Positions 1 through 63,678 are shown, counted from the stretch's first letter. The stretch is 63,678 bases of DNA from a virus (IMGVR_UViG_3300017565_000005:1-63678), one strand, 5' to 3'. Numbers and translations are program-made. Notes: generated by a model not told the origin, from the sequence alone.

Positions 1-123
1 CAAGACGTACCGGCAAATGAAGAACCGGCGCGAACTGGCGACTTATTTGGACAGCCTGACCGGGATGGCGATGCAGTCGATCGGCACAGCGATGAGCGAA
101 GTGACGATGCGGGCAGCAGCGAG
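1..123. repeat. Terminal direct repeat (assembly overlap), identical to 63556-63678
   Basis: CAAGACGTACCGG...GCAGCAGCGAG is identical at both ends; the frame-1 ORF reads through the junction. Confidence 0.97.
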
Positions 124-11440: not shown

Positions 11441-11457
11441 GGTGATAAAATCTCACC
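11441..11457. promoter_or_regulatory. 17-bp palindromic operator overlapping the extended -10 of the lysis promoter
   Basis: GGTGATAAAATCTCACC; TTGCTT at 11424 and TG-A-TAAAAT. Confidence 0.75.
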
Positions 11458-11510
11458 ATGCGCTGCGCAGGACGTGCGGCTTCCTCTCTCACCACCATGG
11501 AGGACGCCAA

Positions 11511-11729
11511 GTGAACGTCCACAGGAGCAGCGTAACAATGAAAGACGAAACGGTAACTACGGCGGCGGCGAAAGCGGCTCTGCCTGTGGGTGTTTCAGGC
11601 AGCTTGATCTTCGGCTATCCCGTCAGCGAAGTCGTTCAATTCATCACCCTCATTTTCCTGATCCTGCAAATCGGGCTTCTTGTCCCGAAGTATTGGGCGT
11701 TGCTCAAAAGCAAGCTGGGCCGCAAATGA
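11511..11729 (+). CDS. Holin (likely pinholin), dual start GTG 11511 / ATG 11538
   Basis: Small hydrophobic protein with a basic C-tail directly upstream of the endolysin; each start has its own SD (GGAGGA, AGGAG). Confidence 0.8.
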   Translation: MNVHRSSVTMKDETVTTAAAKAALPVGVSGSLIFGYPVSEVVQFITLIFLILQIGLLVPKYWALLKSKLGRK

Positions 11730-12220
11730 TCCCGGCATCGCTCAAGCAGAAAATCCTGCTGGCTTCAGCGGGCGGCGCGATCGCCATCGCCGGCGTGCTG
11801 GTGACGTACTTCGAGGGGCGCGCCTACGTGCCGTACCTCGATCCTGTCGGGATCCTGACCGTCTGCGAGGGCCATACCGGCCCCGACATCATCCCCGGCA
11901 AGCGCTACACCGATGCCGAATGCGATGCGCTGCGCGACGCGGATCTGCGCATTGCCGAACGAGCCGTCGAGCGGCGCGTCAAGGTGCGTCTGAACCCGTG
12001 GCAAAAGGCGGCGCTGATCGATTTCACGTTCAACGTGGGCGAGGGCAATCTGGCCAGTTCTACGCTGCTACGGAAACTGAACGCTCACGACTATGACGGC
12101 GCGTGTCGCGAATACGACAAGTGGAACCGCGCGCGCGTGCGCGGCATCCTCACGACCCTGAAGGGCCTGGTTAAGCGCCGCGCTGCCGATCGCTGGGTCT
12201 GCGAGGGCGGCAGTGATTAA
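11726..12220 (+). CDS. SAR endolysin, GH24 lysozyme
   Basis: N-terminal Gly/Ala-rich hydrophobic segment then E-8x-D-5x-T triad (FEGRAYVPYLDPVGILT); FTFNVG; GLVKRR. Confidence 0.93.
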   Translation: MIPASLKQKILLASAGGAIAIAGVLVTYFEGRAYVPYLDPVGILTVCEGHTGPDIIPGKRYTDAECDALRDADLRIAERAVERRVKVRLNPWQKAALIDFTFNVGEGNLASSTLLRKLNAHDYDGACREYDKWNRARVRGILTTLKGLVKRRAADRWVCEGGSD

Positions 12221-12584
12221 AGCCTATCTCTTTGCCTCGCTGGCCGGAGCGATAGCAGGCTTTGGTGCCGCGTGGTTCATCCAGGCCGGCTATGTCGATG
12301 CAGCTGAGGCCCGTACCGATATCGCCATTGAGCAAAAGCGCGCTGTCGAACATGACCTGAAAGTTTGCAAGTTAGGGGTTGAATTGCAAAACGCCGCCAT
12401 TGCTGAATTGGAAGAAAAGGCACGCAAGGCACAGGTCGAATTGCACGCGGCAAAGGAAAGCAGGGATCTGGCTGAATCTCGCGCCGACCGCATCCTGCAA
12501 GAGCGCACCCCGGCCGACCAAGACGCATGCACGTCTGCACGCAACGCATTCGCTGATGAACTTCGACAGGAGCGCACGCGATGA
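12213..12584 (+). CDS. i-spanin (Rz-like)
   Basis: N-terminal TM segment plus coiled coil; follows the endolysin. Confidence 0.8.
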   Translation: MIKAYLFASLAGAIAGFGAAWFIQAGYVDAAEARTDIAIEQKRAVEHDLKVCKLGVELQNAAIAELEEKARKAQVELHAAKESRDLAESRADRILQERTPADQDACTSARNAFADELRQERTR

Positions 12585-12841
12585 GGGCGCTGCTTGTCGT
12601 CGGCATGGCGGTCCTGCTTGGCGGATGCGCCACGACGCCCGAGCCCAGGACCATCACGCAAGTCGTGAAGGTTCCCGTGCCGTGCGAGCCGCAGCGCCCG
12701 GCCGCGCCGTCATGGGCCGTCGATGCGCTAGGGCTCGATGCGAGAATCGACGAGCAGATGCGCGCGCTTCGCGCCGACCGACAGCGCGCGCGCGGCTACA
12801 TTTCCGAGCTTGAGGCAGCCCTGAACTCGTGCAAAAACTGA
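12581..12841 (+). CDS. o-spanin lipoprotein (Rz1-like)
   Basis: Lipobox LLGGC; Pro-rich; follows the i-spanin. Confidence 0.85.
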   Translation: MRALLVVGMAVLLGGCATTPEPRTITQVVKVPVPCEPQRPAAPSWAVDALGLDARIDEQMRALRADRQRARGYISELEAALNSCKN

Positions 12842-21845: not shown

Positions 21846-22648
21846 CGGCACACTTTTCATGGCAGGCTGGCGTCCTCGAATCCGACCTCGGGGCCATGAC
21901 GAAACTGGTTCTCATGGTCATCGGATCGTACATGAACCAGCACGGGCAGGGGGCCTTCCCTTCCTACAAGACGATAGCGGATGGGGCTTCGATCAATCGA
22001 TCGACGGTCATTCGCCACGTCGAGATTGCGCGGCAGGCTGGCTGGCTGAAGATTCAAGCGCGCGTTCGCCCACCGAAAGAAGACGGCAAACCCGAGAGCG
22101 ACACGAACCTCTACGAAATATCGTTCCCGGCGGACACGCAGGAAGAAGAAGGGTGGTCGCACAGGACGACCAGGGTGGTCGCACAGGACGACCAGGGTGG
22201 TGGCACAGGACGACCAGGGGTAGTCGCACAGGACGACCCTAACACCCCATCTATATCACCCCAAGGAACACCCCATATAATAGACGTGCCGGTCACGCGC
22301 AAAGCAGCGCCCGACGAAGATCCGTTCGAGATTGCCTGGAAGCATTATCCGAAGCGCGCCGGCGGCAATCCGAAGGTGGCCGCGCGCAAAGCCTGGGACC
22401 GGCGAGTCAAGGAAGGCGTGGATCCGCAGGTGATGCTCGCCGGCGTGCAGCGCTACGCCGCGTTTTGTCTGGCCACGGGCAAGGAAGGCGGCGAGTACGT
22501 CCTGATGGCCGCAACATTCTTCGGCCCGGCCCAGCGCTATCTTGATGCCTACCAGCTTCCGAAGTGGAAGGGCATGCACGTCAATTTTCAGGAGAAAACT
22601 TATGTCGGAACAGCCGACAGCGAAATTGATTGGCTCGATACTCGATGA
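21842..22648 (+). CDS. Replication initiator (O-like, N-terminal winged HTH)
   Basis: AFPSYKTIADGASINRSTVIRH; internal iterons; FEIAWKHYPKR C-terminal domain. Confidence 0.85.
   Translation: MTAHFSWQAGVLESDLGAMTKLVLMVIGSYMNQHGQGAFPSYKTIADGASINRSTVIRHVEIARQAGWLKIQARVRPPKEDGKPESDTNLYEISFPADTQEEEGWSHRTTRVVAQDDQGGGTGRPGVVAQDDPNTPSISPQGTPHIIDVPVTRKAAPDEDPFEIAWKHYPKRAGGNPKVAARKAWDRRVKEGVDPQVMLAGVQRYAAFCLATGKEGGEYVLMAATFFGPAQRYLDAYQLPKWKGMHVNFQEKTYVGTADSEIDWLDTR
22151..22239 (+). repeat. Four tandem 22-bp dyad repeats (likely replication-origin iterons)
   Basis: GGGTGGTCGCACAGGACGACCA x4 with minor changes, inside the initiator gene, followed by an AT-richer tract. Confidence 0.85.
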
Positions 22649-39493: not shown

Positions 39494-40459
39494 ATGGCTG
39501 ACAAAGACTACACCGACGACGAACTCGACCAGCTGACCGACGAAGAACGCGAGGCGATCGAAAGCAACGACGACATCATCGATGACGGCGAGGACGACGA
39601 CGCCGGCGACGACACGACCGTCAACGACGCCAAGACTGGCGAGGACGACGATAAGCCCGCTGGCAAGGAAGGCGACGACGAGGGCGGCGAAGGCGAGACG
39701 GACCCCGACAAGCAGGACAAGGAGGGCGAGGACGACGCTGCGAGCGCCGGTCGCGACGACGGCAAGCCGGTCGAGAGCGAGGAAGACGAGGCCAAGCCGG
39801 CGGCCAAGCCGCAGTACGCGCCGAGCCTGCGCTCCGAAGTGCCCGACGATTACGACGATCAGATCAAGGCGATCACCGATGAGCGGGCGGCCCTTCGCAA
39901 GCAGTACAACGAGGGCGACATCGACTTCGACGAGTATGACGCCAAGCGCGACGAACTCGACGAGAAGCGCCGCACGCTCGACCAGATCAAGATCAAGGGC
40001 GAGATTTCCGAGGAAATGCGCGTCGATCGCTGGCTGAACCGTGATGTCGCCGGATTCATGGCCGACCACCCGGAGTATAAAGAGGGCAGCGCGCTACACA
40101 CGATGCTCGATCGGGAAGTGCGAATCCTGCAAGCCAAGGCGACAGGCGAGGGGCGCGACCCGTTCGACCCGGCCTTCCTCGATCAGGCGCACGCGAACAT
40201 CCGCGAAAGCCTGGCCAAAGACCTCGGGCTGAAAGCGGACGACAAGCCAGCCGTCATCAAGTCGAAGGGTGCGACGCCACCGCCCAAGCGCACCGTGCCG
40301 CCCACGCTTGGCAACGTCCCGGCCGCCGAAATCGACGACCCGAACGGCGGCAAGTGGGCTTCGCTCGATCGGCTGATGGAATCCAACCCGGCCGCGTTCG
40401 AGGAACGGATGGAAAAAATGTCCGACGAAGAACGCAACGCCTACCTTGCGAGCCAGTAA
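39494..40459 (+). CDS. Capsid scaffolding-like acidic protein
   Basis: D/E-rich N-terminus, coiled coil, PPTLGNVPAA; position in the head operon. Confidence 0.75.
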   Translation: MADKDYTDDELDQLTDEEREAIESNDDIIDDGEDDDAGDDTTVNDAKTGEDDDKPAGKEGDDEGGEGETDPDKQDKEGEDDAASAGRDDGKPVESEEDEAKPAAKPQYAPSLRSEVPDDYDDQIKAITDERAALRKQYNEGDIDFDEYDAKRDELDEKRRTLDQIKIKGEISEEMRVDRWLNRDVAGFMADHPEYKEGSALHTMLDREVRILQAKATGEGRDPFDPAFLDQAHANIRESLAKDLGLKADDKPAVIKSKGATPPPKRTVPPTLGNVPAAEIDDPNGGKWASLDRLMESNPAAFEERMEKMSDEERNAYLASQ

Positions 40460-40465
40460 CCCTCA

Positions 40466-40660
40466 ATGCTGAAGCTGGACCTTTCACCAGGGCAGAGCGT
40501 CAGGATCGGCAGCGATGTCGTCCTGACGCTCGAAAAGAAGACGGGGCAGGTTGCCAGACTGGCAATCGATGCCGACCGAAGCGTCCCTATCCGCCGCGTC
40601 GCCAACGGCGAGGAAAGGCCCGTGCATCGTCAGGTAGTGGGCATCACCGGCAACGCCTGA
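40466..40660 (+). CDS. CsrA/RsmA-like RNA-binding protein
   Basis: Gapless alignment to the recalled E. coli CsrA sequence keeps L2, L4, G9, I14, G15, V18, T21, G27, R31, A36, V40, R44. Confidence 0.8.
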   Translation: MLKLDLSPGQSVRIGSDVVLTLEKKTGQVARLAIDADRSVPIRRVANGEERPVHRQVVGITGNA

Positions 40661-40748
40661 TGGCGGATGGTGGAGGAATCGAACCCCAAGCGCTCAGCGC
40701 ATCATCGGCTTTCAACACCGCGCCCGCAGCCATGTGGGCACACCACCC
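40661..40748 (-). tRNA. tRNA-Ser(UGA)-like gene, non-canonical
   Basis: GGGTGGTG...TTGAAA...long variable arm GCGC-TGA-GCGC...GGTTCGATTCC...CACCATCC-G-CCA. Confidence 0.8.
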
Positions 40749-40753
40749 GGATG

Positions 40754-40951
40754 CTAAAAATCGATCGGCCCGCCTTTCTTTGAAATGCTATAGCCCACGC
40801 CGCTTTGATTTTCGAAGGCCCGATCATCGGTATTGATCCGCTGCTGTGTCGGGCTGCCCTGCAGAGGGATTTCGATATCAACATCCTTGGCGCGGATCTT
40901 GATCTTGCGCCCGTCAAACACGTCGCTGCCATCTTCAAACGTCAAACTCAT
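40754..40951 (-). CDS. Small hypothetical protein
   Basis: GGAGAG SD before ATG. Confidence 0.5.
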   Translation of the reverse strand: MSLTFEDGSDVFDGRKIKIRAKDVDIEIPLQGSPTQQRINTDDRAFENQSGVGYSISKKGGPIDF

Positions 40952-40983
40952 TTCACTCTCCAGTAAAAGACAAGCCCCGCGCT

Positions 40984-41550
40984 TTATGCGGCCGGCTGCG
41001 AACGCAACGACGCGACGGAAGTAGACATGTCCTGATACGCCGTCATCGTGCCAACGGAATTCGCTGCGAAGTTGCGGGTGAATTGAGGGTTGATCCCATA
41101 TTGAGCGCCGGTCTGAAACGCATCTTGGTTCGCGGCCAGGAACACGAACTTCCAGTTATGCTTTTCTGCGTGCTGGATCATCGCCTTGATTTGCTCAGCA
41201 GTGTATTCCTTGCTGGCGTTTTCACCGCCATCGGTGATGATCGTCACGATCACCAGATCGGCCCAGCCCTCATCATGGATGCGCTTGCCCTGGACATTCA
41301 GCGCGGAGCCTATCGCGTCGAGCAACGCCGTCGTCCCGCGCGGCTCAAGATTGAGCGGCGGCACTTCGCTCAGCGGTTTTGCTTCATATTGCGTCTCGAT
41401 GCGATCGTCGAACATGATCTGCGTGACGCGCGCCTCGCCTTCCACCTTTTTCTGTTCCTCGATGAAGCTGGCAAATCCGCCGTTCGCGTCCTCGCGAATG
41501 CTTGCCATGCTTCCCGATCGGTCAGTCACTACGATGATTTCTGTTTTCAC
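40984..41550 (-). CDS. von Willebrand factor A (VWA) domain protein
   Basis: MIDAS motif DRSGSM, TALLDAIG, ITDGGENAS; GTG start with AAGGAAAGGA. Confidence 0.9.
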   Translation of the reverse strand: MKTEIIVVTDRSGSMASIREDANGGFASFIEEQKKVEGEARVTQIMFDDRIETQYEAKPLSEVPPLNLEPRGTTALLDAIGSALNVQGKRIHDEGWADLVIVTIITDGGENASKEYTAEQIKAMIQHAEKHNWKFVFLAANQDAFQTGAQYGINPQFTRNFAANSVGTMTAYQDMSTSVASLRSQPAA

Positions 41551-41582
41551 GGTCCTTTCCTTGCCTCGTAAATGGGGGTGTC

Positions 41583-41688
41583 GATGGTGGCCGGCGCTGA
41601 TCCCCGGCATACACTCTCTCGTTCTGTTTCAGCGGGCCTAGTGGGTGCAGCCGCCGCAGTCCGCGCATCAGCCTGCGCATTCACCATC
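41583..41688 (-). ncRNA. C4-like antisense RNA
   Basis: GATGGTGAATGCGCAGGCTGATGCGC...ATGCCGGGGATCAGCGCCGGCCACCATC fits the C4 architecture; closing stem GATGGTG/CACCATC. Confidence 0.75.
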
Positions 41689-41966
41689 ACGGCTGGCCCC
41701 AACTCCATCTCCCTCACAAGCGGCGCTTGATCGTCCGGCATAGGGCCATGCGTGATAGTCCTGGCCTTTCCAGACGCCAGGGCGGTCCCAGGTTCTCATC
41801 TGTGCGCCTGCTGTGACTAGCGCCTTCCGGAAAACCCCGCTCATTTGCAATCCTGGCCTTTTGCTTCGCCAGGGCGGAAGTGATGGAAGGTGGCTGCGAA
41901 AATTTTCCAGCTTTCGCCTTCGGCCTTTGCTATTACCTCCCGGAACGGCCAAGCGGGCGGCCAATT

Positions 41967-42105
41967 CCATCACATAGGCGGGCCGGGCTTGATTCCGGCT
42001 GACCCTTTCTGCGCGCGCTTTACCCGTCAATGCGTTGGGTATCTCTAACTCCGGGTCGCTCCGCTTATAAGCGCGTTTCCTTCAACGCCGCCGCCTATGT
42101 GATGG
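41967..42105 (-). ncRNA. Second C4/c4-2-like structured RNA
   Basis: Perfect 15-bp closing stem; GCGTT-GAAGGA-AACGC hairpin; T-arm-like GCCGG-AATCAAGC-CCGGC hairpin. Confidence 0.65.
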
Positions 42106-42584
42106 CCCTTCCCCCGATGCGAAGCATGCCAGTGAACTCAAAGGGGGAAGGGGTACTGCAAAAAAGATGGCACCCTAGTCGGCACCCCATCCTGATAACA
42201 GGTGTGTAAGGTCGGCGGCCTACCGGGATTTCGTCCGCCCCGTTCTCCAACTGTCCAGAGCCACCCGTACACGCTGGACGCGCGTCGTATGGTTCTCATC
42301 ACCATCAAGAAGATGCACTCTTGCGTTCGCATATGGCAGCGTGTCATCAACAAACCAAAAGGACCACAGATTTTAAGCTACGCGGCCGCGCCAACCGACC
42401 GCCGCAAAAATGCACCTACTTCATGGTCCAGGGCTCTTACGCGGCCCCGGTTACGTCCATCGTTGCGTATGGCCTATGGACGGCCAAGGAGGGAACCCGA
42501 CATTTGCCCCTGTCGGGCCGCGCGCAACTCGCGGTAAGGCGGGGTGAAGTCAGTACGATTCTACACCCTATTCGTCCGCCTGTG

Positions 42585-43373
42585 TCACTTGTGATGCAGC
42601 GGAACGATGCCCGCCTCTTTCGCGATCTTTTCGCGCAGTTCGCTCACCGCATCCTCGACGATCACATGCGGACGGACCAGTTCATACCACATGGAAAGCC
42701 GGCCATCGTGGATCCGATAGCGGAACTTCGCCTCGACGCGATAGTGAACGCCGTTCACGAAGACAGGCATGCCAAGGAAGATCGATTCCGGGATCTGCAA
42801 ATTGCCCTTCGCCGCGCTGCCGTCGATCTGTTCCTCGTACGTGAACTGGTTTGCACCATTGGACAGGCGCAGGCCCGAGACGAAGTTGACCTTTTTCTTG
42901 GCTTGCAGCGTCGTGACGATTTCGAGCAGGCTCGCCGCTTCCGGCTCAATGATGTCGGGCAGGTTGCGCTCGATGAACAGCGAGAAAGCTTCCTGATTCA
43001 TCGGCTCTCTGTCGTGCGATTCCCATTCCAGCCAGGACGGCGAGCATTCGCACTGGAAAGTGGCAGTGTCATCTTCCCAATCCGGCGCGCCCGCGCGCGA
43101 GCCGTTGAAGATCGCCTTGAATCGCGGAGGATTGACACCGTAGTAGAGGTCCGTGTTCTCCGTCTTTTGCCGGTTCACGAACGCGATGAAACTCTGTTCG
43201 TCGCCCAGCAACGCATTACGCTTGTTGCGCGCCGGCTTGTCCATCATGTACTGCAAGTTTGCGATTTCGTAGCCTTTCGGCACGATCACGAACGGCCGAT
43301 TGTCGACAGTTCGCACGACGCCAAGCGCAGCACCGGCATGCAGGATGGCGTCAAAAGCGATGGGTTGATCCAT
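42585..43373 (-). CDS. DUF2303/YfdQ-family protein
   Basis: SFIAFVNR, MNQEAFSLFIERNLPDI, RLSNGANQFTYEE, AKFRYRI. Confidence 0.88.
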   Translation of the reverse strand: MDQPIAFDAILHAGAALGVVRTVDNRPFVIVPKGYEIANLQYMMDKPARNKRNALLGDEQSFIAFVNRQKTENTDLYYGVNPPRFKAIFNGSRAGAPDWEDDTATFQCECSPSWLEWESHDREPMNQEAFSLFIERNLPDIIEPEAASLLEIVTTLQAKKKVNFVSGLRLSNGANQFTYEEQIDGSAAKGNLQIPESIFLGMPVFVNGVHYRVEAKFRYRIHDGRLSMWYELVRPHVIVEDAVSELREKIAKEAGIVPLHHK

Positions 43374-43409
43374 TTCCTTTCCTTGAAAGTGTGAAGTGAA
43401 TGCCGCGTC

Positions 43410-43790
43410 TTACTGCGCGCGACGAAGCGGGACGGGAGAGGGCGCGGGAACGCTCTTTATTTCCCCGGTTTCCTTGTCGATGGTCTTCAGGCCCTCGATT
43501 TCCATCTGACGCGGGTCGGTACGGGCAAGATTGCCGGATGGCATGACGAACATGATCGACGAGCCCTTTTGTTCCTTCGGCATCGTCACCTTGATTTCGT
43601 CTGTGATTTCGATGCGGCCAGGGCCGCCCGGCTTGATCTTCAGCGTCAGCGCGATCGAGCCGACACGCTGCGTGTTGTCCACGCGCCGCACCAGTTCATG
43701 CAGCTTTTCGCCCAATTCCTCGTCGAGCGTGCCGTAGCGCAACGCTTTCAAGGTCTCGCTGATGGAAAATTCCTGCTTACTTTCGTCCAT
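43410..43790 (-). CDS. YfdP-like partner of DUF2303
   Basis: LRYGTLDEEL...GSIALTLKIKP...SGNLARTDPRQ; adjacent to the DUF2303 gene. Confidence 0.78.
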   Translation of the reverse strand: MDESKQEFSISETLKALRYGTLDEELGEKLHELVRRVDNTQRVGSIALTLKIKPGGPGRIEITDEIKVTMPKEQKGSSIMFVMPSGNLARTDPRQMEIEGLKTIDKETGEIKSVPAPSPVPLRRAQ

Positions 43791-44096
43791 TTCCTTTCCT
43801 TTGAAGTGTCGAACATGCGATCAGGCATGCTCGTCCTGCCATAAAAGCCTCCCCCTAACCCCAGCCGGATTAAAAGAAGGATCCTGCCACCCTTTCGGGA
43901 ATCCCATGCCACGGCATCACACGTCCCCGTGGTCCCCAGGCTTGGGATTGCAGCCAGCCTGCCGTGCCGACGCTTTCGCTTTTCAGGGAATTGCACCCAT
44001 CGGCCGGATCGCGCCGCGTGTCGGCGCTGTGTTTCGTTCCGAGCGGCCCATGCAGGCCCATTGCTGACGTGCGGAGTACGGTCGGCGGCAGCCGGA

Positions 44097-44239
44097 AATG
44101 ACAAAACCCCATTAGCGGGCTGGCTCTTGGCGGAGCGGATGCTTGTGACCGTAGAGCACTTGCATCTGGACAGCCCCCTAATGGGGTCTTCGGCCTACGG
44201 ATTTGCATCGGCAGCCATGCCGACAACTGAATAATACCA
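44097..44239 (-). promoter_or_regulatory. Leftward promoter plus structured attenuator-like leader (c4-a1b1 / P4 CI-like)
   Basis: TG-G-TATTAT extended -10 (44231-44239); 5' hairpin; long stem AAGACCCCATTAG.../...CTAATGGGGTTTT with two internal hairpins and a U tail. Confidence 0.7.
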
Positions 44240-44276
44240 CAAGATAAACGCCATGTGTTGCGTTTTTATCCTGGGT

Positions 44277-44319
44277 GGTGATAAAATCACACCAAATAGG
44301 ACGCGCAGGATGTGCCTCC
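44277..44319 (+). promoter_or_regulatory. Capsid promoter/operator plus AGGAU-loop hairpin
   Basis: GGTGATAAAATCACACC, then GCGC-AGGAT-GTGC; same layout as the lysis leader. Confidence 0.72.
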
Positions 44320-44354
44320 CCTGAATGTGAAATCAACTTTCATGGAGCATATCT

Positions 44355-45452
44355 ATGCGAACCGTCGTTCCGTTTGGCGATCCCAAAGCCGTAAAGAAAT
44401 GGGCAGCCAGCCTCTTTGTGGACGTGACGAAAACGTCCTACTTCGAGCGCAAATTCGTCGGCAAATCTGAAAACGCCGTCATCCAGCGCAAAACCGAACT
44501 CGAATCCGGCCCCGGCGATCGTATCAGCTACGATCTGTCCATGGAGTTGCGCGGCCGCCCGACCTACGGCGACAACCGCGTCAAGGGCAAGGAAGAAAAC
44601 CTCAAGTTCTACACCGACGAAGTTGCCATCGACCAGCTGCGTCACGCTGTGTCGGCCGGCGGTCGCATGACGCGCAAGCGTGTCCCGCACGACATGCGCC
44701 AGACGGCGAAAACCCGCCTGTCCGAATACTGGTCGCGGTTCGTCGATGAAACGCTTTTCATCTACCTGTCCGGCGCGCGCGGCATCAACGAGGACTTCAT
44801 CGAAGCCCTGAATTGGGCCGGCCACGCCAACAACACGATCCAGGCCCCCGACAGCCATCACATTCTGTACGGCGGCGACGCCACCAGCAAGTCGACCATC
44901 ACCAGCGACGATGTGATGAGCCGCGCCGTCATCGAGCGCGCCGTGACCAAGGCCAAGATGCTGCACGCGACCGACCCCGACTCGGCCAGCATGCCCGCCG
45001 TCACGATCAACGGCGAGGGTCACTACGTCTGCGTCATGTCGCCGTTCCAAGAACACGCGATGCGCATGGACGACGAGAAGGGCTGGCTGGAAATCCAGAA
45101 GGCCGCCGCCGCCGCCGAAGGCAAGAACAACCCCATCTTCAAGGGTGGGCTGGGCATGATCAACAACTGCGTGCTGCACAGCCACGTATCGGTCATCCGG
45201 TTCAACGACTACGGCACCGGCACCAATCTGCCGGCCGCGCGCGCGCTGTTCATGGGCCGTCAGGCCGCTGTCATCGCCTACGGATCTGCCGGCGGACTTC
45301 GCTTCACCTGGAAAGAGGAAGTCGAAGACTACGGCAACGAGCCTGTCGTGGCGTCCGGAACCATTTTTGGCGTGAAGAAATCGCGCTTCAACAATCGGGA
45401 CTTCGGTGTTGTCGCCATCGACACCTACGCCAAAGACCCCAACGCCGCGTAA
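44355..45452 (+). CDS. Major capsid protein (N4-gp56 family)
   Basis: GDPKAVKKWA, GDRISYDL, IDQLRHAV, NPIFKGGLG, WKEEVEDYGN, DFGVVAIDT. Confidence 0.95.
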   Translation: MRTVVPFGDPKAVKKWAASLFVDVTKTSYFERKFVGKSENAVIQRKTELESGPGDRISYDLSMELRGRPTYGDNRVKGKEENLKFYTDEVAIDQLRHAVSAGGRMTRKRVPHDMRQTAKTRLSEYWSRFVDETLFIYLSGARGINEDFIEALNWAGHANNTIQAPDSHHILYGGDATSKSTITSDDVMSRAVIERAVTKAKMLHATDPDSASMPAVTINGEGHYVCVMSPFQEHAMRMDDEKGWLEIQKAAAAAEGKNNPIFKGGLGMINNCVLHSHVSVIRFNDYGTGTNLPAARALFMGRQAAVIAYGSAGGLRFTWKEEVEDYGNEPVVASGTIFGVKKSRFNNRDFGVVAIDTYAKDPNAA

Positions 45453-55329: not shown

Positions 55330-56719
55330 AGGCGGCGGCAGCGCACCAAAACCGGATCCACAGATCGGCGAAGCCGCATTGATGAATGCGCAGCTGGGGG
55401 CCGAATACCTCGAATTCGCAAAGCAATCCTACGCCGAGTCGATGCTGCGCCAGGGCGACATCGACGACCTGACGAAACAGGTCATCGAGCAGCAGATGGG
55501 GATTGCCGACGAGCAGCTTGGCATATCCCGCAGTCAGGCCGACATCGCCAAGCAGGTTGCCGACAAACAGATGGGCATCGCGGATCGCCAGCAGGCGCTC
55601 GCGGAAGATGTTGCCGGCAAGCAGATGGCGATGTCCGATAAGCAGCTTGAGATTGCCAACCAGCAGCAGGAATGGGCAACGTCCGATCGCAAGCGCTATG
55701 AGGACGTGTTCCTGCCCGTCGAGGACCAGTTCATCGACGAGGCGACGAATTACGCCAGCCCCGAGCGACAAGCGCAGGAAGCTGCCGCAGCCAAGGCGGA
55801 CGTACAGAAGCAGGCCGATATCGCGCGCGCGCAGTCGCAGCGCCAAATGGCGAGCATGGGGGTAAACCCCAATTCCGGACGCTTTGCCGGCATCGATCGG
55901 ACGGGAGAACTGGAAACGGCGCTCGCCACGGCCGGCGCGCAGAACAACGCGCGCACGCAGGTCCGCGACAAGGGGCTGGCGCTGAAGGCGGACGTGGCGA
56001 ACATGGGCCGTGGTCTGCCGGCGCAGTCGGCGCAGGCCGCGAGCATTGGCCTCGGGGCCGGGCAGTCGGCGGCGGGTATTGCCGGCGGCGCGGTGGGCAC
56101 GGCCGGCGCGGGGGTCGGAGCGCTGCAAGGCATGGCGGCCGGATACAGCCCGGCGGTCAACTCGCTGCAAGGCGCATCGGCCACGCTCGGATCTGCGCTC
56201 GGAGCCGCGAGCAACGCCAATGCGAACTTCCTCAGTTCGCAAGGCATCATGGGCCAGGGCTACGCGCAGGGCATGCAGGGATACGCCAATCAGGCGAACA
56301 TCCTGAACCAGCAGTACCAGAACCAGCTGAGTGCTTGGGGCATGCAGCAGCAGGCCAATGCGGCCGACGCCTCGGGCATCTTCGGCGCGATCGGCACCGG
56401 CATCGGTCTGGCGTTCTCGTCCAAGAAGGTCAAGGAGAACAAGAAGAAGGTCGATGGCGCGCTGAAGGCCGTCGAGAAGATGCCCGTGGAGCAGTGGAAG
56501 TACAAAGATGGCGTCGAGGACAGCGGCGAGCATATCGGGCCGTATGCCGAAGACTTCCAGAAACATACCGGGCTGGGCGACGGCCAGCGCATTGCGCTTC
56601 AGGACGCCGTGGGCGTCACCATGAAGGCCGTTCAGGAACTGAGCGAAAAGGTCGACGTGATGGCGAAGAAAATGCCGGGGCTGACCGGACGCAGGCAAGA
56701 ACTTCGGAGGGCCGCGTAA
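55319..56719 (+). CDS. Internal virion / DNA ejection protein with C-terminal S74-like chaperone domain
   Basis: MGGKGGGSAPKPDP; Q/A/G-rich; SSKKVKEN...WKYK...HIGPYAEDF. Confidence 0.8.
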   Translation: MGGKGGGSAPKPDPQIGEAALMNAQLGAEYLEFAKQSYAESMLRQGDIDDLTKQVIEQQMGIADEQLGISRSQADIAKQVADKQMGIADRQQALAEDVAGKQMAMSDKQLEIANQQQEWATSDRKRYEDVFLPVEDQFIDEATNYASPERQAQEAAAAKADVQKQADIARAQSQRQMASMGVNPNSGRFAGIDRTGELETALATAGAQNNARTQVRDKGLALKADVANMGRGLPAQSAQAASIGLGAGQSAAGIAGGAVGTAGAGVGALQGMAAGYSPAVNSLQGASATLGSALGAASNANANFLSSQGIMGQGYAQGMQGYANQANILNQQYQNQLSAWGMQQQANAADASGIFGAIGTGIGLAFSSKKVKENKKKVDGALKAVEKMPVEQWKYKDGVEDSGEHIGPYAEDFQKHTGLGDGQRIALQDAVGVTMKAVQELSEKVDVMAKKMPGLTGRRQELRRAA

Positions 56720-57891: not shown

Positions 57892-60800
57892 GTGGCAGAC
57901 AACAACACGTTCGGCCTGAACCCACTTGATCGTGCGATTGCCGACACTGAATCGAGCTTCGAGCCGATCGGCATCGATTTCCAGCGCCAGAACACGCCGG
58001 CCCCTGAGATTGATGCGCGCCAGGCTGACCCGCAGCCCAAGCCGGCACGGGTAAGCGGCAGGGCCGCAGGTGGTCTTGCGCCCCCGAACGCGCTCATGCC
58101 GTTGTTTGAAGGGGCCGCTCGAAAATACGATGTTCCGGTCAACGTCATCATGGCGCTGGCGCAGCAGGAATCGAACTACAACTCCCAAGCCATGGGCTCG
58201 CAGACCAAGTGGGGCCGGGCCATGGGCATGATGCAGTACCTGAATTCCACGGCCAAGGGCCTTGGCATCAACCCGTTCGTGCCCGAGCAGGCGATCGACG
58301 CGGCCGCGATGCAGATCCGCCAGCGCCTGGACAAGGGATACTCGATCGAGGACGCGGTAAAGGAACACTTCGCCGGCCCGGATCGCCGGCTGTGGGGACC
58401 GAAGACCCGCCAGTACGGCATCGACGTGATGAGGAAGGCGCGCGCGCTGTCGGGGCTGTACGGCAGCGGCGCGGACAGTTCGTTCCTCACGCAGGGTCCA
58501 ATGTCCACGGTGCAGGATGGCCCGATGTCTGTGCCTGCCGGCACGGATACGCGCGACTTGAACCTGACCATGCCGAACGTGCAGGACGACCAGGACGCGC
58601 GCGTCGCGGCGCAGATGGCCGAACTGGATCGCCAGGACGGCAAGAATTACATACTGCGCACCAACCCCGGCATGATCGAGCCGGGCAATCTGGACCTGAA
58701 TAACCGTCCTGTCGTCAAGAACGATGATGGATCGATCAGCACGGTACGCTCCATGTCGATCAACATGGACGGCAAGGAATACCTGATTCCGACCATCGGC
58801 CTTGATGGCAAGGTGCTGAACGATGATGAGGCGGTCGAGAATTTCAAGAAGACTGGCCAGCATCTTGGTGTATTCGAGAACGCCGAGAGCGCGACGAAGT
58901 ACGCCGAGAAGCTACATGAGCAGCAGGCCAAGCAGTACGGGCGTCCCGGCGTACTGACGCAGGCGGCCAACGATGCGCTGCGCGGTTTCAGCAACCTGAA
59001 AAATATCGGTGTCGGGCTGGCGGCGCTGGGTGCCGATCTTGTGGGCGCGGACAAGACCGCCGACAGGCTGCTGCAAACCTACATGGACAACGCGGCCGAC
59101 ATCGCCAAGAACAACCCGGCGGTCATCGGCACGTACAAGAACATAAAGTCGCTTGGCGATGCCGGGCGCTATGCGATCGAGGCGGTGGCCGAGAACTTGC
59201 CGATGATGGTTCCGTCGCTTTTGACGGGCGGCATCGGCGCGGCGCTGGCGAAAAAAACGGCCGAGCGCGCCGTCACGCAGTTCATAGAAGGTCAGGTTTC
59301 CAAGGGCGTTGCGCGCGAACTGGCCGAGAAGCAGGCGGCGAAACTTGCCGCGCGGCGCATTCTTGTCGCCAGCGGTGGCGGTGCGGCGCTGTCTTCGATC
59401 GGGATCGAGTCGGGCAACATCTACGGCGACACGTTCCGCGAAACGGGCAAGAAAGCGCCTGGTTTGTCGGTGGCGTTTGGTGTGCCGGCCGGCGTTCTCG
59501 ACGCGATCGAGCCCGTGTATGCGCTCTCGAAGATTGCCGGCCCCGCCGTCAAGCAGCTGGCCGGCGGCATCATCAAGCGCATGGGCAAGGAAGCCGGCAA
59601 GCAGTTCCTGATCGAGGCGGGAACCGAGGGCTTGCAGTCGATGCTGGAGGCCGCACCCAAGTCGATCACCACGGGCAAGCCGTACTGGACCGAGGAATTG
59701 CTCGATGATGTCATCGACTCGGTACTCAAAGGCGGCTTGGCTGGCGGTACGTTCGGCGCTGCGACCGCGCCGTTTCATGGTAGCGGATCTGGCGAAGCGC
59801 CCGCTGCGCCGCCAGCCGGGCCTGCCGTCGAGCCGCCCGCCGCGCCAGCGCCGGGTACGGAGCAGGTTTCGACCGCTCCCAATGGTGACACGGTACGCTG
59901 GACGGAGCCGTCCGAGCCCGACACGCGCGGCCCGCTCACGCGCGCCATGGAGGTTGGCGAGAACGTCGCCGCCAGCAAGCGCGTCGTCGTCACCACGCCG
60001 GCCGGGCAGATAACCGGATTTCTGGAATCGCTCAACGAGGACGGCCAGGGCGGATTCGTCGCTCGCGTGCTGGGCTATGATGGTCAGTATCACCAGTTCA
60101 CGCACAACGATCCGGTCAAGATCCAGACCGAAGCAGCCGCGATGGCAGAACGCCGTGCGCAGATTGAAAGTCAGGAGGTTGTTGATCCTGAAACCGGCGA
60201 AATTCTTACGCAGGAGCCCGCACATGCAGCAGATGATGATGGACGTGAATCAGGCGCTGAGGCTGTTGCGACAGGTGAAGGCGGTGTCGCCGGCGCAGTC
60301 GAAGATGCTGCTGCGCTGCCTGAGAGCGGGCCGGCCGATACCGCCAAGGCTAAACGGCCTGTGCGAAAAGCTGTACCTGCTACAGATCAAGCCTCCGACC
60401 GACAGCCGGCACTAGAAGAACCCGTTGCCGTCGAGGATATGACGGCCGAGCAGTTGGCCGAGCGCCGTGAATACTTGTCGGAGCAGGCCAAGTTAAACGG
60501 CGGATGGAATAAAGCGCTGATACGCGAGCGCACAAAGGTAGAGTCCGCCCAGCGCAAGCTGACACAATCAGAGTCAGCTGGGAACAGGCCCGGAGACGAT
60601 GCAGGGAATGGGTTTAAGGTTGGGCCACAAGATGGGGAGCGCTATCGAGTAAGCATTGTGCCCGGTCTTGGCAGTGCGGTGGCACTGGAAAAGCGGCTAC
60701 CTGCTGGAACGGCGGCAACCTTCTATGTCGGCAAAGATGGCAACCTGATTGATGGTGATGACGTAGATGTTTCCAAAGAAAGCAGTAGATCCAGGGTTTG

Positions 60801-63678
60801 GATACCCGAAAGTCAAGATGCGTCCAATGAGGCAATGTCCATTCTGGATCAGATGGGCATGCTTCCGCTTGACAGCCCAAAACGCAGGGAACTCAAGAGC
60901 CGATTGAAGGCGCTTGTCACCGGCCATCCGACGCAGCAGCCGCAGGTTTCGCTAAATAGCGATGCGACCGCTGCACAACCGGCGCAGGAAGCGGACAATA
61001 GGACCGCGCCCGCCGTCACGCCGCGCGAAACCAGCATCACGACGCCCGAGGGTAAACCCTTGGTCGAGCTTTTCCATCCCGCCGAAGGGATGCGCGTGTG
61101 GGTGCGAAAGGATCAATGGGATGCCGGCCAGGAAAAGCTGGCCGCGTTTTCCGAATCCGGCGCGCGCCGCTTCGGATCTGGACAGAACGTACAGCGCAAG
61201 GCGCTGACCGACCCTGTGCCGGAAGCGGACGCGAAGCCGGCTGAAGTCGTTGCCGAGCCGGCCCCAGCGCCGGCCAAGCCGAAAACCGTCAGCAAGGAAG
61301 AAGCGGAACACCTGTTCGGCGTCGATCAGAAACGGGAAAAGGCGCTGGAGCGCATCGCCAAGGGCCGCGCATGGTTTGGCGATCAGAAAAAGGCGCGCGA
61401 GTTCATCGCCAAGAACGGGCTGAAAGATACGCACGCGGTCGAGCAGACCGGCGCAAAGCGGTTCGAGGTCAAGACTAAGGACACGGCGGCGGTAGACAAG
61501 GCTGCGACCGCTATAAACGAAAATATTGCCCATGCGATTGATGACGCTACTGCGCTATCGAAACTGGTAGATGACGCAAACCAGCGGACCCAAGCCGAAG
61601 TCGAATCCATCAAGCAGCAAGCACGGGACGCAGCGGAACGCGGCGCGCCACGCCGGCCACCTGCCGGTCTTGGTGAGGTATATAAGGAGGTCTGGCGGCT
61701 TGAATTTGATGATGCACGCCGCTCGAAAGATCAGCAGGCGGTTACTGGCGATGACACCGGGGCCGCGGCCAAGCGCTTCGAGGTCAAGGCGAAGGCGACG
61801 GAAGATGGCGCGGCCGCCATCCGCAAGGCCGGATCGGTTGTCTCAGAGGACGCGACGCCGGCATTAGGCGCGCTCTACCATGGATCGCCGGCTGCGTTTG
61901 AAATATTCCGCGATCCTGTAGGCGAGGATCGTAAAGGCGGTGCTGGATACGATCACCAGGGGCGCGGGATTTATCTGACGAGCGATCCGAACGGATTTGG
62001 CAGGTTCTTTGCGACGGATCCGCGCGCGAAACTTGCCATGTCCTTGCACAGCGAAGGAAAGGCCGAGGAAGCCGAAGCCGTGATGGACGGCCCCGGCTTT
62101 GTGATGGGCGTCAAGCTTGCCGACGACGCGAAGATTCTTGATGTCGAGCGCGCTCCAAAAGCGATCAAAGACCTTTTCGACCGCAGTGTTGGCGATACCG
62201 AAGTTGGCGATCAATTGCGTCAGTCGGTGATCGACGCAGGATATGACGGCATCGTTTTCAAGGAGCCGAACTATCCCGAAGGCTGGGAAGTGTCGCAAGA
62301 CGCGCGTACAGTCGTCGTCTACAAAGCCGATAAGGCGAAAATCACGGATCGCCGCGAGGCGCGTGAGTACGAACTGCCAATGGGGTGGTCGGAACGCGGT
62401 GAGGGCGGACGTACCGCCGGCGAACCAGCACCTTCTGCTGCCCAAAGTGGTGAGAAAACTGCACCAAATAAATCTGCGCCAGAACTTTTGCGCGAGGCAG
62501 TCCAGCAGCAGACCGAAAAGAAACCCGTCACGGTTACGCGCACTCCCGGCGTTACCACCATCGTTATCGACCCGAGTGCGATGTCGCCGGACCCGACCGC
62601 ACCGACCGAGCAGAATGTCGCGCCCGAGTCGAAGCCGGCTGACGATCGCTTTGCCAAGAACAAAATATTCACCACCGACAAGGTCGCGGCGGCGCGCGCG
62701 TTGATGCGCTCCAAGTTCGGGCAACTGAACAGCGGCTTTGACCCGGAAATGATGGTCGCCGGCGCGACGATCGCTGGCGCGTACATCGAATCCGGCGTGC
62801 GCGACTTTTCCGCCTACGCCAAAGCCATGATCGACGACTTTGGCGAAGGCGTGAGGCCATACCTGCTTTCGTTTTGGGAGGGCGTGCGCAGCTATCCGGG
62901 GCTGGACACCAAGGGCATGACGGATGTGGATGAGTCCCGCCGGCAGTTCGACGCCATCATCGGCGCCGAGCCCGTGAAGTCCGAGGCGGTTGGCGATGTT
63001 GTGAAAAAGCCCGCCAAGCGCACCAAGAAAACCGGCAAGGCTGTCGACCGCGTACTGACCCAGGATTGGGGTGTTGATCATATCGATGCCTATTCCGAGG
63101 AAGGCGAGCAGGTCAAAGACCAATTCATCAAGGAATCGCGTTCGTACCTGAATGCCGTGGCCGGCATCCTGATGGAGAACGGCTACACGCCGCACATGGA
63201 CAAGAAGGGTCGCCCGGAGCGCCCGGTGCGCGTCAACGAGGGTGGCATAGCGGTATCGGGCGACGTTTCCCTGGTCCTGGCCGGCCCCGGCGACGTGGGC
63301 GCATACATTAATATAGGCGGATCTGCGCTGCGCGGCGTGGTCCCGACGACGCCAAGCGGCGTTGCCATTATGTTCCGCGCGGCGCAAAATAGTGATAAAT
63401 TCGGTGTAAAAGGCACAAATCAGTGGGCACCCGTAGACCTTTCGGCGGCGGATTTCGCTGCCCTGGTCGACACCCACATTCAACGCGAGGCCAATCGAAA
63501 TGAACGACCGGCAACTACGGCAGACGCTGGATCTGGCGTTCAAGGATCGAGCGCCCAAGACGTACCGGCAAATGAAGAACCGGCGCGAACTGGCGACTTA
63601 TTTGGACAGCCTGACCGGGATGGCGATGCAGTCGATCGGCACAGCGATGAGCGAAGTGACGATGCGGGCAGCAGCGAG
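57892..63678 (+). CDS. Giant DarB-like polyvalent protein, N-terminal part (SLT transglycosylase, hydrophobic region, ART-like domain); continues across the junction to 11223
   Basis: GTG start; AARKYDV...AQQESNYN...AMGMMQY (SLT, ~58096-58440); LYHGS...GIYLT...GYDGIVF (~61870-62345); absent from the ORF track because no stop occurs before the window end. Confidence 0.9.
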   Translation, partial: MADNNTFGLNPLDRAIADTESSFEPIGIDFQRQNTPAPEIDARQADPQPKPARVSGRAAGGLAPPNALMPLFEGAARKYDVPVNVIMALAQQESNYNSQAMGSQTKWGRAMGMMQYLNSTAKGLGINPFVPEQAIDAAAMQIRQRLDKGYSIEDAVKEHFAGPDRRLWGPKTRQYGIDVMRKARALSGLYGSGADSSFLTQGPMSTVQDGPMSVPAGTDTRDLNLTMPNVQDDQDARVAAQMAELDRQDGKNYILRTNPGMIEPGNLDLNNRPVVKNDDGSISTVRSMSINMDGKEYLIPTIGLDGKVLNDDEAVENFKKTGQHLGVFENAESATKYAEKLHEQQAKQYGRPGVLTQAANDALRGFSNLKNIGVGLAALGADLVGADKTADRLLQTYMDNAADIAKNNPAVIGTYKNIKSLGDAGRYAIEAVAENLPMMVPSLLTGGIGAALAKKTAERAVTQFIEGQVSKGVARELAEKQAAKLAARRILVASGGGAALSSIGIESGNIYGDTFRETGKKAPGLSVAFGVPAGVLDAIEPVYALSKIAGPAVKQLAGGIIKRMGKEAGKQFLIEAGTEGLQSMLEAAPKSITTGKPYWTEELLDDVIDSVLKGGLAGGTFGAATAPFHGSGSGEAPAAPPAGPAVEPPAAPAPGTEQVSTAPNGDTVRWTEPSEPDTRGPLTRAMEVGENVAASKRVVVTTPAGQITGFLESLNEDGQGGFVARVLGYDGQYHQFTHNDPVKIQTEAAAMAERRAQIESQEVVDPETGEILTQEPAHAADDDGRESGAEAVATGEGGVAGAVEDAAALPESGPADTAKAKRPVRKAVPATDQASDRQPALEEPVAVEDMTAEQLAERREYLSEQAKLNGGWNKALIRERTKVESAQRKLTQSESAGNRPGDDAGNGFKVGPQDGERYRVSIVPGLGSAVALEKRLPAGTAATFYVGKDGNLIDGDDVDVSKESSRSRVWIPESQDASNEAMSILDQMGMLPLDSPKRRELKSRLKALVTGHPTQQPQVSLNSDATAAQPAQEADNRTAPAVTPRETSITTPEGKPLVELFHPAEGMRVWVRKDQWDAGQEKLAAFSESGARRFGSGQNVQRKALTDPVPEADAKPAEVVAEPAPAPAKPKTVSKEEAEHLFGVDQKREKALERIAKGRAWFGDQKKAREFIAKNGLKDTHAVEQTGAKRFEVKTKDTAAVDKAATAINENIAHAIDDATALSKLVDDANQRTQAEVESIKQQARDAAERGAPRRPPAGLGEVYKEVWRLEFDDARRSKDQQAVTGDDTGAAAKRFEVKAKATEDGAAAIRKAGSVVSEDATPALGALYHGSPAAFEIFRDPVGEDRKGGAGYDHQGRGIYLTSDPNGFGRFFATDPRAKLAMSLHSEGKAEEAEAVMDGPGFVMGVKLADDAKILDVERAPKAIKDLFDRSVGDTEVGDQLRQSVIDAGYDGIVFKEPNYPEGWEVSQDARTVVVYKADKAKITDRREAREYELPMGWSERGEGGRTAGEPAPSAAQSGEKTAPNKSAPELLREAVQQQTEKKPVTVTRTPGVTTIVIDPSAMSPDPTAPTEQNVAPESKPADDRFAKNKIFTTDKVAAARALMRSKFGQLNSGFDPEMMVAGATIAGAYIESGVRDFSAYAKAMIDDFGEGVRPYLLSFWEGVRSYPGLDTKGMTDVDESRRQFDAIIGAEPVKSEAVGDVVKKPAKRTKKTGKAVDRVLTQDWGVDHIDAYSEEGEQVKDQFIKESRSYLNAVAGILMENGYTPHMDKKGRPERPVRVNEGGIAVSGDVSLVLAGPGDVGAYINIGGSALRGVVPTTPSGVAIMFRAAQNSDKFGVKGTNQWAPVDLSAADFAALVDTHIQREANRNERPATTADAGSGVQGSSAQDVPANEEPARTGDLFGQPDRDGDAVDRHSDERSDDAGSSE
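60224..60415 (+). CDS. Nested +1-frame 63-aa gene inside the giant gene
   Basis: CAGGAG SD 7 nt before ATG; genome-typical codons in frame 2 while frame 1 wobble turns A/T. Confidence 0.6.
   Translation: MQQMMMDVNQALRLLRQVKAVSPAQSKMLLRCLRAGRPIPPRLNGLCEKLYLLQIKPPTDSRH
63500..63678 (+). CDS. Nested TnpV-like gene, 5' part (ends at 373)
   Basis: GAGG SD 9 nt before ATG; MNDRQLRQTLDLAFKDRAPKTYRQMKNRREL. Confidence 0.65.
   Translation, partial: MNDRQLRQTLDLAFKDRAPKTYRQMKNRRELATYLDSLTGMAMQSIGTAMSEVTMRAAA
63556..63678. repeat. Terminal direct repeat (assembly overlap), identical to 1-123
   Basis: Exact sequence identity. Confidence 0.97.

Follow-up and report, generated by a model that had tools for sequence, protein, structure and literature searches.

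A conserved leader element before the capsid and lysis genes of Bcep22-like podophages is a candidate target of their CsrA homologue

The complete viral genome IMGVR_UViG_3300017565_000005, which is 63,678 bp long, is bounded by direct terminal repeats, was analysed over its whole length and is referred to here as the window, carries a gene of the CsrA/RsmA family in its head block, and the question raised by this locus is which RNA such a phage-borne regulator would act on. By sequence, the capsid gene and the CsrA-like gene assign the window to the Bcep22-like podophages (Lessievirus, Gervaisevirus, Cimandefvirus, Skulduggeryvirus, Ittyvirus, Parlovirus, Lastavirus, Pavtokvirus and Sinorhizobium phage PBC5), whose annotated records do contain CsrA-like genes, as a preliminary description of the locus had stated. 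That description had gone further and proposed that the phage supplies both the protein and its binding sites, timing capsid production, lysis and the shut-off of early genes. Our analysis suggests that the capsid gene and the lysis cassette have in their leaders a common, conserved element which could fold either into a hairpin of the type bound by CsrA or into one strand of a helix closing the ribosome-binding site (RBS), and we put at roughly 0.5 the probability that the phage CsrA binds the nascent hairpin and gates the translation of late genes, more likely activating than repressing it. The features on which the argument turns are these:

40466..40660, + strand: CsrA/RsmA-family gene, 64 aa, with matches to PF02599 and phrog_8397 and, through a profile of homologues, to solved RsmE/CsrA chains
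44277..44293, + strand: promoter-like box GGTGATAAAATCACACC before the capsid gene; extended -10 TGnTAAAAT within an inverted repeat
44303..44315, + strand: capsid leader element GCGC-AGGAU-GUGC, predicted local hairpin of -9.0 kcal/mol
44355..45452, + strand: major capsid protein gene, recognized by identity to annotated capsid proteins
11441..11457, + strand: promoter-like box GGTGATAAAATCTCACC before the lysis cassette
11465..11477, + strand: lysis leader element GCGC-AGGAC-GUGC, predicted local hairpin with a 7-bp stem, -11.4 kcal/mol
11538..12841, + strand: lysis cassette with holin-like, endolysin and two spanin-like open reading frames (ORFs)

The 13-mer GCGCAGGAYGTGC occurs exactly twice in the window, at 11465 and 44303 and both times on the + strand; 0.03 copies are expected and none of 100 shuffles reaches two, which rules out a chance origin and shows that the near-identical elements reported earlier in the lysis and capsid leaders are real. 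In a nascent RNA of 28-32 nt both elements are predicted as hairpins with GGA in the loop, at the energies listed. The Shine-Dalgarno (SD) sequence of the capsid gene is AUGGAG (44342-44347), 7 nt before the ATG at 44355, and that of the lysis cassette is CAGGAG (11522-11527), 10 nt before the ATG at 11538, in a leader with four GGA within about 70 nt. An ANGGA overlapping both SDs had been claimed; this holds for the capsid gene, but the lysis SD has AGGA, and GGA at the SD is not conserved, many relatives having GAGG.

An exact GGTGATAAAATCNCACC stands 8-10 nt before each copy of the 13-mer, and this motif has eight copies in the window at three mismatches or fewer, where 0.38 are expected. 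These eight copies of a promoter-like inverted repeat, GGTGAKAAAATNNCACY, lie at 11441, 16027 (on the - strand), 16784, 20952, 34150, 44277, 54853 and 62449 and probably mark the transcription units of the phage and a site for a common regulator; the six boxes other than those at 11441 and 44277 are not followed by the 13-mer. The two boxes are read as extended -10 promoters because they are repeated and because relatives show TTGCA-N17-GATAAT at the same place. Since a simple sigma-70 scan calls neither 44277 nor 11441, promoter and operator are putative designations.

The element is not peculiar to the window. It is present in all 67 distinct capsid leaders examined (the window and 66 relatives), about 12-16 nt after a -10-like box; GGA is found in 56 of the 67, mostly in the form GCGCAGGA, whose conservation goes further than pairing demands, and a CsrB-type CAGGAYG loop is likewise found in 56. 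All eight genomes checked in the clade of the window (the window itself, PBC5, Skulduggery, Itty13, PEp14, Parlo, SJM3 and the IMG/VR provirus G002) have a second copy, which lies between a promoter-like box and the endolysin or lysis gene, and in five of the eight the capsid and lysis loops of one genome share their triplet, whether GGA, AGA or UGA. The sites claimed for both leaders are thus conserved at the same places in relatives. Lysis leaders of relatives were located by sequence pattern and only exact matches were followed, a search with one mismatch having returned noise, with forward and reverse counts like those of the control. At zero mismatches no second copy was found in BcepIL02 or DC1 (the Ralstonia phages lay outside this search), and pattern matches at DC1 46734 and BcepIL02 47499 were discarded as lying inside coding regions. 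The capsid and endolysin genes of PBC5 lie side by side in divergent orientation, and each has a copy of the element to itself. Three betaproteobacterial prophages of Rubrivivax and Limnobacter (L148, L150 and L152) have the hairpin stem lengthened to six pairs, GAGCGC/GUGCUC, and repeat AGGAGUG in the same sense, with no complement, at the 5' hairpin and at the SD (AGGAGUGCUC at both places in L152), which argues that the local hairpin is a real element and that a two-site layout exists.

The hairpin had initially been described as if it stood alone. It is predicted to form in the nascent RNA, but in the complete leader the 13-mer would be the 5' strand of a covarying helix that hides the SD, the spacer and the AUG:

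44300..44319, + strand: 5' strand of the predicted capsid helix, from RNAfold of 44294-44372
44344..44366, + strand: 3' strand of the predicted capsid helix, which takes in the SD GGAG (44344-47), the spacer, UG of the start codon at 44355 and the codons that follow
11459..11534, + strand: predicted folded lysis leader, in which 11459-66 pairs with 11527-34, just past the SD AGGAG (11523-27)

RNAfold gives 44294-44372 as one long irregular hairpin of -26.9 kcal/mol (z -4.14, none of 200 shuffles as stable). For 11458-11555 it gives -33.6 kcal/mol (z -2.12, 4 of 200 shuffles as stable), with GGACGU (11470-75) pairing to ACGUCC (11515-20), the UCC of which lies beside the SD. The RBS is paired alike in the full capsid leaders of PBC5 (z -4.7) and BcepIL02 (z -3.2), the same fold being less clear in GP4 (z -1.0) and Itty13 (z -1.8).

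Covariation supports the predicted helix over the SD and start codon. The bases 3' of GGA vary by lineage (UGUGC, GUGUG, GCGCC, GUGCC, GCUGCC and others), and the SD-AUG spacer of the capsid gene complements them (GCACA, CACAC, GGCGC, GGCAC, GGUAGC). RNAalifold, run on a plain MAFFT alignment of 45 leaders, returns five helix pairs, four of them with compensatory double changes. When a GGA/UCC-type pairing, limited to the triplet and its complement, serves as the anchor, the helix grows by at least 4 bp in 35 of the 49 leaders that have such an anchor, against 12% of 2632 swapped pairs, and the extensions comprise 10 distinct 5-mers. A model-fitted alignment, which has 49 matches from 68 sources, leans toward structure and is built of related sequences, pairs in 91.0% of its cells against 79.4% in shuffles (0 of 500) and has 36 doubly changed cells against 10.4, while slid partners give 21-57%. 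The predicted consequence for the RBS is visible in the window, where capsid positions -14..+3 have an unpaired probability of 0.14 in the native leader; shuffling the 5' part raises it to 0.38, and none of 30 shuffles comes down to the native value. In 57 of 65 leaders this probability is lower with the native 26 nt at the 5' end than with shuffled ones, and in 23 of the 65 no more than one of 30 shuffles is as low. By our own reading, the gamma-hosted clade appears to keep the logic of hairpin against long-range helix with other strands: here the spacer pairs with bases that flank the hairpin on its 5' side, and GUGCGG, the 3' strand, pairs with a CCGCAC directly ahead of the SD.

The protein that could act on such a site is a genuine member of the CsrA family as judged from its matches, and putatively RNA-binding, which bears out the CsrA-fold gene first proposed for the head operon. 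Pfam CsrA (PF02599) matches residues 1-44 of the 64 with 35.7 bits over a cut-off of 27, phrog_8397 ('CsrA-like regulator') matches at 2.4e-17, and a profile of 11 phage homologues matches solved RsmE/CsrA chains (2jpp at 3.8e-10, 2bti and 1y00, with a range to 2.7e-7) in one shared register, residues 2-47. CsrA contacts RNA through L2, L4, R6 and R7 of strand 1 and V40, V42 and R44 of strand 5; in that register the window protein has L2, L4, V40, I42, R43 and R44, so that the residues said to be kept are in place. The C-terminal tail of the phage proteins is conserved, with G59 nearly invariant, which is a hint of a partner protein and little else. Proteins of the CsrA family form an intertwined homodimer; a two-copy complex prediction of the window protein (score 0.29, mark 0.42) is not used as evidence.

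The gene also has a fixed place. In the window it starts 7 nt past the stop codon of the preceding gene, with no evident SD:

39494..40459, + strand: acidic scaffold-position gene, 321 aa, placed by synteny between the portal gene and csrA

The scaffold role of this gene is a putative one that follows from synteny, no Pfam family matching it over the cut-off. The annotated order of portal, scaffold-position gene of about 320 aa, sometimes one small gene, csrA and capsid is found in nine phages of six host genera (Burkholderia, Ralstonia, Pseudomonas, Serratia, Klebsiella and Erwinia), and the window capsid protein is 59-69% identical to the annotated ones of Itty13, PBC5, GP4, BcepMigl and SJM3. 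With the window proteins as queries, tblastn finds CsrA in 92 of 94 sequences (93 loci and the window segment) and the capsid protein in 88, the capsid gene of relatives usually starting 30-190 nt past csrA. Among nine prophage loci of bacterial genomes, with alpha-, beta- and gammaproteobacterial hosts, there are eight in which a CsrA-like ORF closely precedes the capsid gene. No relative without a csrA-like gene was found: PBC5 carries a diverged copy (56 aa, E 3.1e-6) about 30 kb from the capsid gene, and the Ciceribacter prophage (L146) has a sub-threshold CsrA match about 26 kb from the capsid locus. The head block is split in both (PBC5 being L013/L097), the csrA-like gene staying with the portal and scaffold-position genes and the capsid gene lying at a distance. 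Because it is kept at one place of the head block across alpha-, beta- and gamma-hosted relatives, csrA is, on this comparison, a fixed core gene of the Bcep22-like head block rather than a loose moron.

The link between protein and element is circumstantial, and it is suggested by adjacency, by the CAGGAYG loops and by residue 44. csrA is usually the immediate upstream neighbour of the capsid promoter and leader. Escherichia coli CsrA binds the CAGGA(U/C/A)G repeats of CsrB, and the window loops C-AGGAU-G and C-AGGAC-G fit that repeat exactly. The conservation of GCGCA-GGA far beyond the covarying part of the helix suggests a factor acting in trans, and the capsid and lysis leaders within a genome tend to agree in their triplet. 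Residue 44 is non-basic (G, C, I or L) in 6 of the 11 leaders' genomes whose loop lacks GGA and in none of the 56 with GGA (Fisher 4.6e-6). Skulduggery has a UGGAU loop and R44, and proteins of the Itty13 or LASTA type have G44 or C44. On these grounds we give slightly better than even odds to binding of the leader element by the phage CsrA.

The sequences show the family of the gene, the position and conservation of the element, its covarying long-range helix and its second copy at lysis genes. The mechanism that we envisage, in which the transcription start, the binding and the direction of the effect are all ones that we infer, would run as follows. Each late unit, capsid and lysis, would be transcribed from its own promoter-like box, with the leader element about 10-25 nt into the transcript. 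The nascent element would fold into the GGA-loop hairpin, a CsrB-type CAGGAYG site, and once the leader is complete the same bases would pair with SD, spacer and start codon and close the RBS. A phage CsrA dimer on the nascent hairpin would decide which fold wins, and translation of the capsid and lysis genes would thereby be coupled to prior expression of the head operon. In the likelier direction the 5' strand would be held off the RBS, giving activation. Given binding, we judge activation the better bet, with repression a serious second possibility, because GGA is conserved solely in the RBS-closing strand and not at the SD; a covarying sequestering helix speaks for activation through anti-sequestration no less than for repression.

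A number of observations count against this reading. AGA or UGA replaces GGA in 11 of the 67 capsid leaders (AAGAC loops in Itty13, Parlo, SJM3, L092 and L093, AAGA in L083, AUGAC in PEp14, L090 and L091, and AUGA in PBC5 and L082; the Ciceribacter prophage, beyond the 67, has AUCAA), and canonical CsrA needs GGA. Since 10 of these 11 share the window's own clade of 13, the GGA of the window is the minority state among its nearest relatives. The residue-44 association is not significant once kinship is considered, there being just three independent pairs on supported branches of the capsid tree, too few for a sign test to reach significance, and R or K44 is kept in five non-GGA lineages (PEp14, L082, L092, Parlo and L083). 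The window protein has L6 and S7 where CsrA has R6 and R7, a loss that the preliminary description had read correctly, and position 7 is mostly K or R in relatives. In the minimum-energy folds of both full window leaders GGA is base-paired and not looped. The helix is not universal either: the strict helix test was failed by 14 of the 49 anchored leaders and by the 18 of 67 without an anchor, and the RBS is no less accessible with the native 5' part than without it in 8 of 65 leaders. The covariance model R1 recovered 49 of 68 sources but missed most of the window's clade and eight of nine bacterial-genome prophages; in the window it found the capsid leader alone (E 5.8e-6; the next match, 55766-55852 at E 0.53, lies inside a gene) and did not recover the lysis leader. 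A search of sequencing runs for the window returned soil-metagenome DNA runs and no RNA run.

Several of these points are what would be expected if the leader were a self-contained cis device, its RBS closed by the complementary 5' strand and the whole working without phage CsrA. Opening it would fall to ribosome standby binding, co-transcriptional kinetics, a host nuclease or some further phage factor, leaving the CsrA-like protein to act on host mRNAs, on defence systems or as a virion-associated protein. Compensatory pairing is kept without GGA in L082 (UGAGUG/CACUCA) and L083 (AAGAGUGC/GCACUCUU), the five lineages that combine non-GGA loops with R or K44 fit as well, and the element persists in PBC5 and the Ciceribacter prophage though their csrA-like genes are remote from the capsid gene. 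As far as the accessible portions of the papers go, published ideas are host-directed (repression of CRISPR-Cas, PMC8450108; a moron, PMC9144972), and JC1 virions yielded a single CsrA peptide (PMC9144972). Harder to reconcile with a device of this kind are the conservation of GCGCA-GGA, far greater than that of the covarying helix part, the loop triplet shared by both leaders in five of eight genomes, the constant place of the gene in the head block whether the relatives have alpha-, beta- or gammaproteobacterial hosts, and the restriction of a non-basic residue 44 to rows that have lost GGA; we consider the device doubtful, though the strongest of the alternatives. A role of the 13-mer as DNA, that is, as a promoter-proximal operator or a pause site for a late transcription factor with the RNA folds as by-products, would explain the fixed distance from the -10-like box in every relative (about +10 to +25) and the sharing of the element by two late transcription units. 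It appears very improbable given that the GCGC/GUGC stem, with a conserved G-U, is not a DNA palindrome, that the partner strand 30-50 nt away at the start codon covaries, G-U pairs included, and that the other six promoter-like boxes of the window lack the 13-mer.

The circuit as first proposed, in which CsrA represses by bridging the GGA of the hairpin and that of the SD and also shuts off about ten early genes, we hold to be quite unlikely. Both window SDs contain GGA, the lysis leader is rich in that triplet, the AGGAGUG layout of L148, L150 and L152 has two sites, and AAGGAAAGGA, the tandem AAGGA of the preliminary description, does precede ten genes. The GGA of the SD, however, gives way to GAGG in BcepIL02, Bcep22, DC1, Itty13 and many IMG/VR leaders, and a repressor would add little if the long-range helix already closes the site. 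As for the tandem repeat, the window has 10 exact copies of AAGGAAAGGA and one of AAGGAAAAGGA, a looser pattern giving 15 against 0.63 expected, and all 10 exact copies stand 0-2 nt before the start codon of an ORF of 94-262 aa. The ten genes are thus there, but they are not all early ones, three lying in the island between csrA and the capsid gene. Because the second GGA abuts the start codon and the first lies at SD distance, AAGGAAAGGA reads as a strong, repeated ribosome-binding cassette. Five csrA-carrying relatives (PBC5, BcepIL02, GP4, Skulduggery and provirus G001) have no exact copy, so nothing comparative ties the repeat to CsrA, and early shut-off by the phage CsrA finds no comparative support, the cassette being confined to the window among the six genomes checked. 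CAGGAHG occurs 68 times in the window against 24.7 expected from dinucleotide shuffles, an excess not counted as evidence given that the shuffles do not keep codon usage. An array at 22150-22238 on the + strand, inside an HTH_36 gene, consists of four 22-bp tandem repeats with 94% matches, whose unit is the dyad GGTCG-CACAGGA-CGACC and which as RNA would form four GGA-loop hairpins; it is followed by an AT-rich stretch and a DnaC/IstB-like gene, and was rejected as a CsrA sponge in favour of a replication origin with iterons, which is most likely.

At the other end of boldness, phage CsrA and its leader site could be a private, co-evolving pair that serves as the late-translation switch of the whole phage group, which we regard as unlikely. 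Residue 44 would then stay R or K with a GGA site and be free to become G, C, I or L with AAGA or AUGA, and such a shift would shield the circuit against host CsrA and the sponge RNAs that go with it. In addition, the conserved C-terminal tail may then report capsid assembly back to translation, in the manner of FliW with flagellin. The non-GGA shift is mostly found in a clade of Pseudomonas, Serratia, Klebsiella and Erwinia phages, whose hosts have Csr/Rsm, together with alphaproteobacterial members.

Gating of late translation by the phage CsrA, the reading we prefer, has partial precedents. In the E. coli CsrA/CsrB system and two-site leaders such as glgC, the loops and the L2, L4, V40, I42 and R44 of the protein have direct counterparts in the window; in contrast to these, the phage site doubles as the 5' strand of an RBS-closing helix, no sponge RNA was identified in the phage, and the second GGA at the SD that marks leaders of the glgC or hag type is present in the window but is GAGG in many relatives. 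In Bacillus subtilis, CsrA, together with FliW, controls the translation of hag, that is, of the abundant self-assembling flagellin, via a 5' hairpin and the SD. By analogy, the phage CsrA is a candidate regulator of one very abundant structural protein via a 5' hairpin; no FliW-like partner turned up in the phage, where none was searched for. For activation, the closest cases are Com-mom of phage Mu and CsrA-ymdA, in which an RNA-binding protein at a 5' hairpin prevents a start-hiding structure and turns translation on. Com is small and encoded just upstream of its target, as the phage protein is of its candidate target, and the phage leader has a predicted start-hiding helix; the direction of the effect in the phage is put forward by likeness, and Com is a zinc finger and not a CsrA fold. 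The idea of an early shut-off is modelled on T4 RegA, which represses early mRNAs at the level of translation; for this idea the tandem AAGGA lacks comparative support. Closer to hand, the CsrA genes of the Lessievirus/Gervaisevirus type (Bcep22 gp54, BcepIL02 gp49, DC1 gp46, JC1 gp47, GP4, Parlo, LASTA and Pavtok) are of the same family, lie in the same slot between scaffold-position and capsid genes and encode proteins 41-56% identical to that of the window, which differs in having S7 rather than K or R7 and in an insertion of 3.6 kb between csrA and the capsid promoter.

That interval is an island of minus-strand genes (40661-44276) with a VWA-like gene (40984-41559), a DUF2303 gene (42585-43373, 7.7e-58) and a 126-aa ORF (43410-43790), each behind a copy of AAGGAAAGGA. 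A non-coding stretch of about 105 nt upstream of the VWA-like gene (41583-41689) shares 86% identity with unannotated sequence of Alcaligenes phage CASP1 and 77% with Iodobacter phage PhiPLPE. Insertions at the same gap elsewhere measure 0.5-2.9 kb (2.9 kb in L082, 2.0 kb in L078), and in Claudette and Eline the gap is occupied by an HNH endonuclease. Directly after csrA, a tRNA-like gene on the - strand (40664-40749) matches the full Rfam model of tRNA-Sec (RF01852) with 45.1 bits, gathering score 47, E 4.9e-7. An ARAGORN scan of the window returned no tRNA and no tmRNA, Rfam 15 gave no match at gathering score in the whole window, and an Rfam E-value search of 40600-44400 gave no match to the leader. 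The genes of the lysis cassette, all on the + strand, are as follows:

11538-11729, + strand: holin-like ORF, 63 aa, a role assigned from size and order
11726-12220, + strand: endolysin, Phage_lysozyme PF00959 at 1.1e-37 over 11726-12217
12213-12584 and 12581-12841, + strand: spanin-like ORFs, putative on the basis of size and order, the last ORF also starting like a lipoprotein

The endolysin has no relative in five phage records. An integrase-like gene adjoins the cassette (13097-14443, + strand; DUF6538 over the cut-off, Phage_integrase below it), which suggests that the phage may be temperate. A very long reading frame on the + strand is open at both ends of the record (1-11223 and 57892-63678, 3740 and 1929 codons), and its counterpart in PBC5 is annotated as a DarB-like antirestriction protein. 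A capsid-protein search for prophages in 185,579 species genomes gave nine loci, none above 66% identity.

As to CsrA in the hosts, PF02599 has no match over the cut-off in five genomes with related prophages (Thioclava, Ciceribacter, Quisquiliibacterium, Limnohabitans and Limnobacter), and the same search is positive in E. coli, B. subtilis and T. maritima among 14 control genomes; this agrees with the earlier statement that most alpha- and betaproteobacteria lack CsrA. Of the four sub-threshold matches in the five genomes, three lie at the prophage loci and one in Ciceribacter 26 kb off, with the contig numbering of G007 unchecked. Burkholderia cepacia and B. cenocepacia, hosts of csrA-carrying phages, have no chromosomal csrA according to the accessible part of Sobrero and Valverde (PMC7366521). 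In the portions of the papers available, the phage gene has been called a moron (PMC9144972) or a host manipulator and proposed as a possible modulator of biofilm or of CRISPR-Cas (the latter in PMC8450108), and no phage target is named (PMC9144972, PMC8450108, PMC7366521, PMC11879866). In coliphage PTXU04, which we have not placed in this phage group, knock-down of a csrA homologue gave small plaques and its expression was toxic or interfering, its role being called untested in 2025 in the part of that paper available (PMC11879866). Nor did the full-text literature, as far as it was accessible and supplements apart, name a target in the phage's own leaders or describe the leader element. Within the literature searched, then, the gene was already known; what is new is the conserved element of the late leaders, the way it pairs and covaries with the start site, and its occurrence before capsid and lysis genes alike.

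That the protein acts on the element is a well-grounded hypothesis, still unproven. What the analysis provides is a concrete, conserved candidate target inside the phage, the capsid and lysis/endolysin leaders, together with a defined, predicted RNA switch. Even without CsrA, the leader element is an undescribed and widely conserved candidate cis-regulatory RNA in a phage group that includes candidates for biocontrol and therapy. If the link is true, these phages would possess a self-contained post-transcriptional timer of late genes that works in hosts without CsrA, and would be a natural source of orthogonal protein-RNA pairs.

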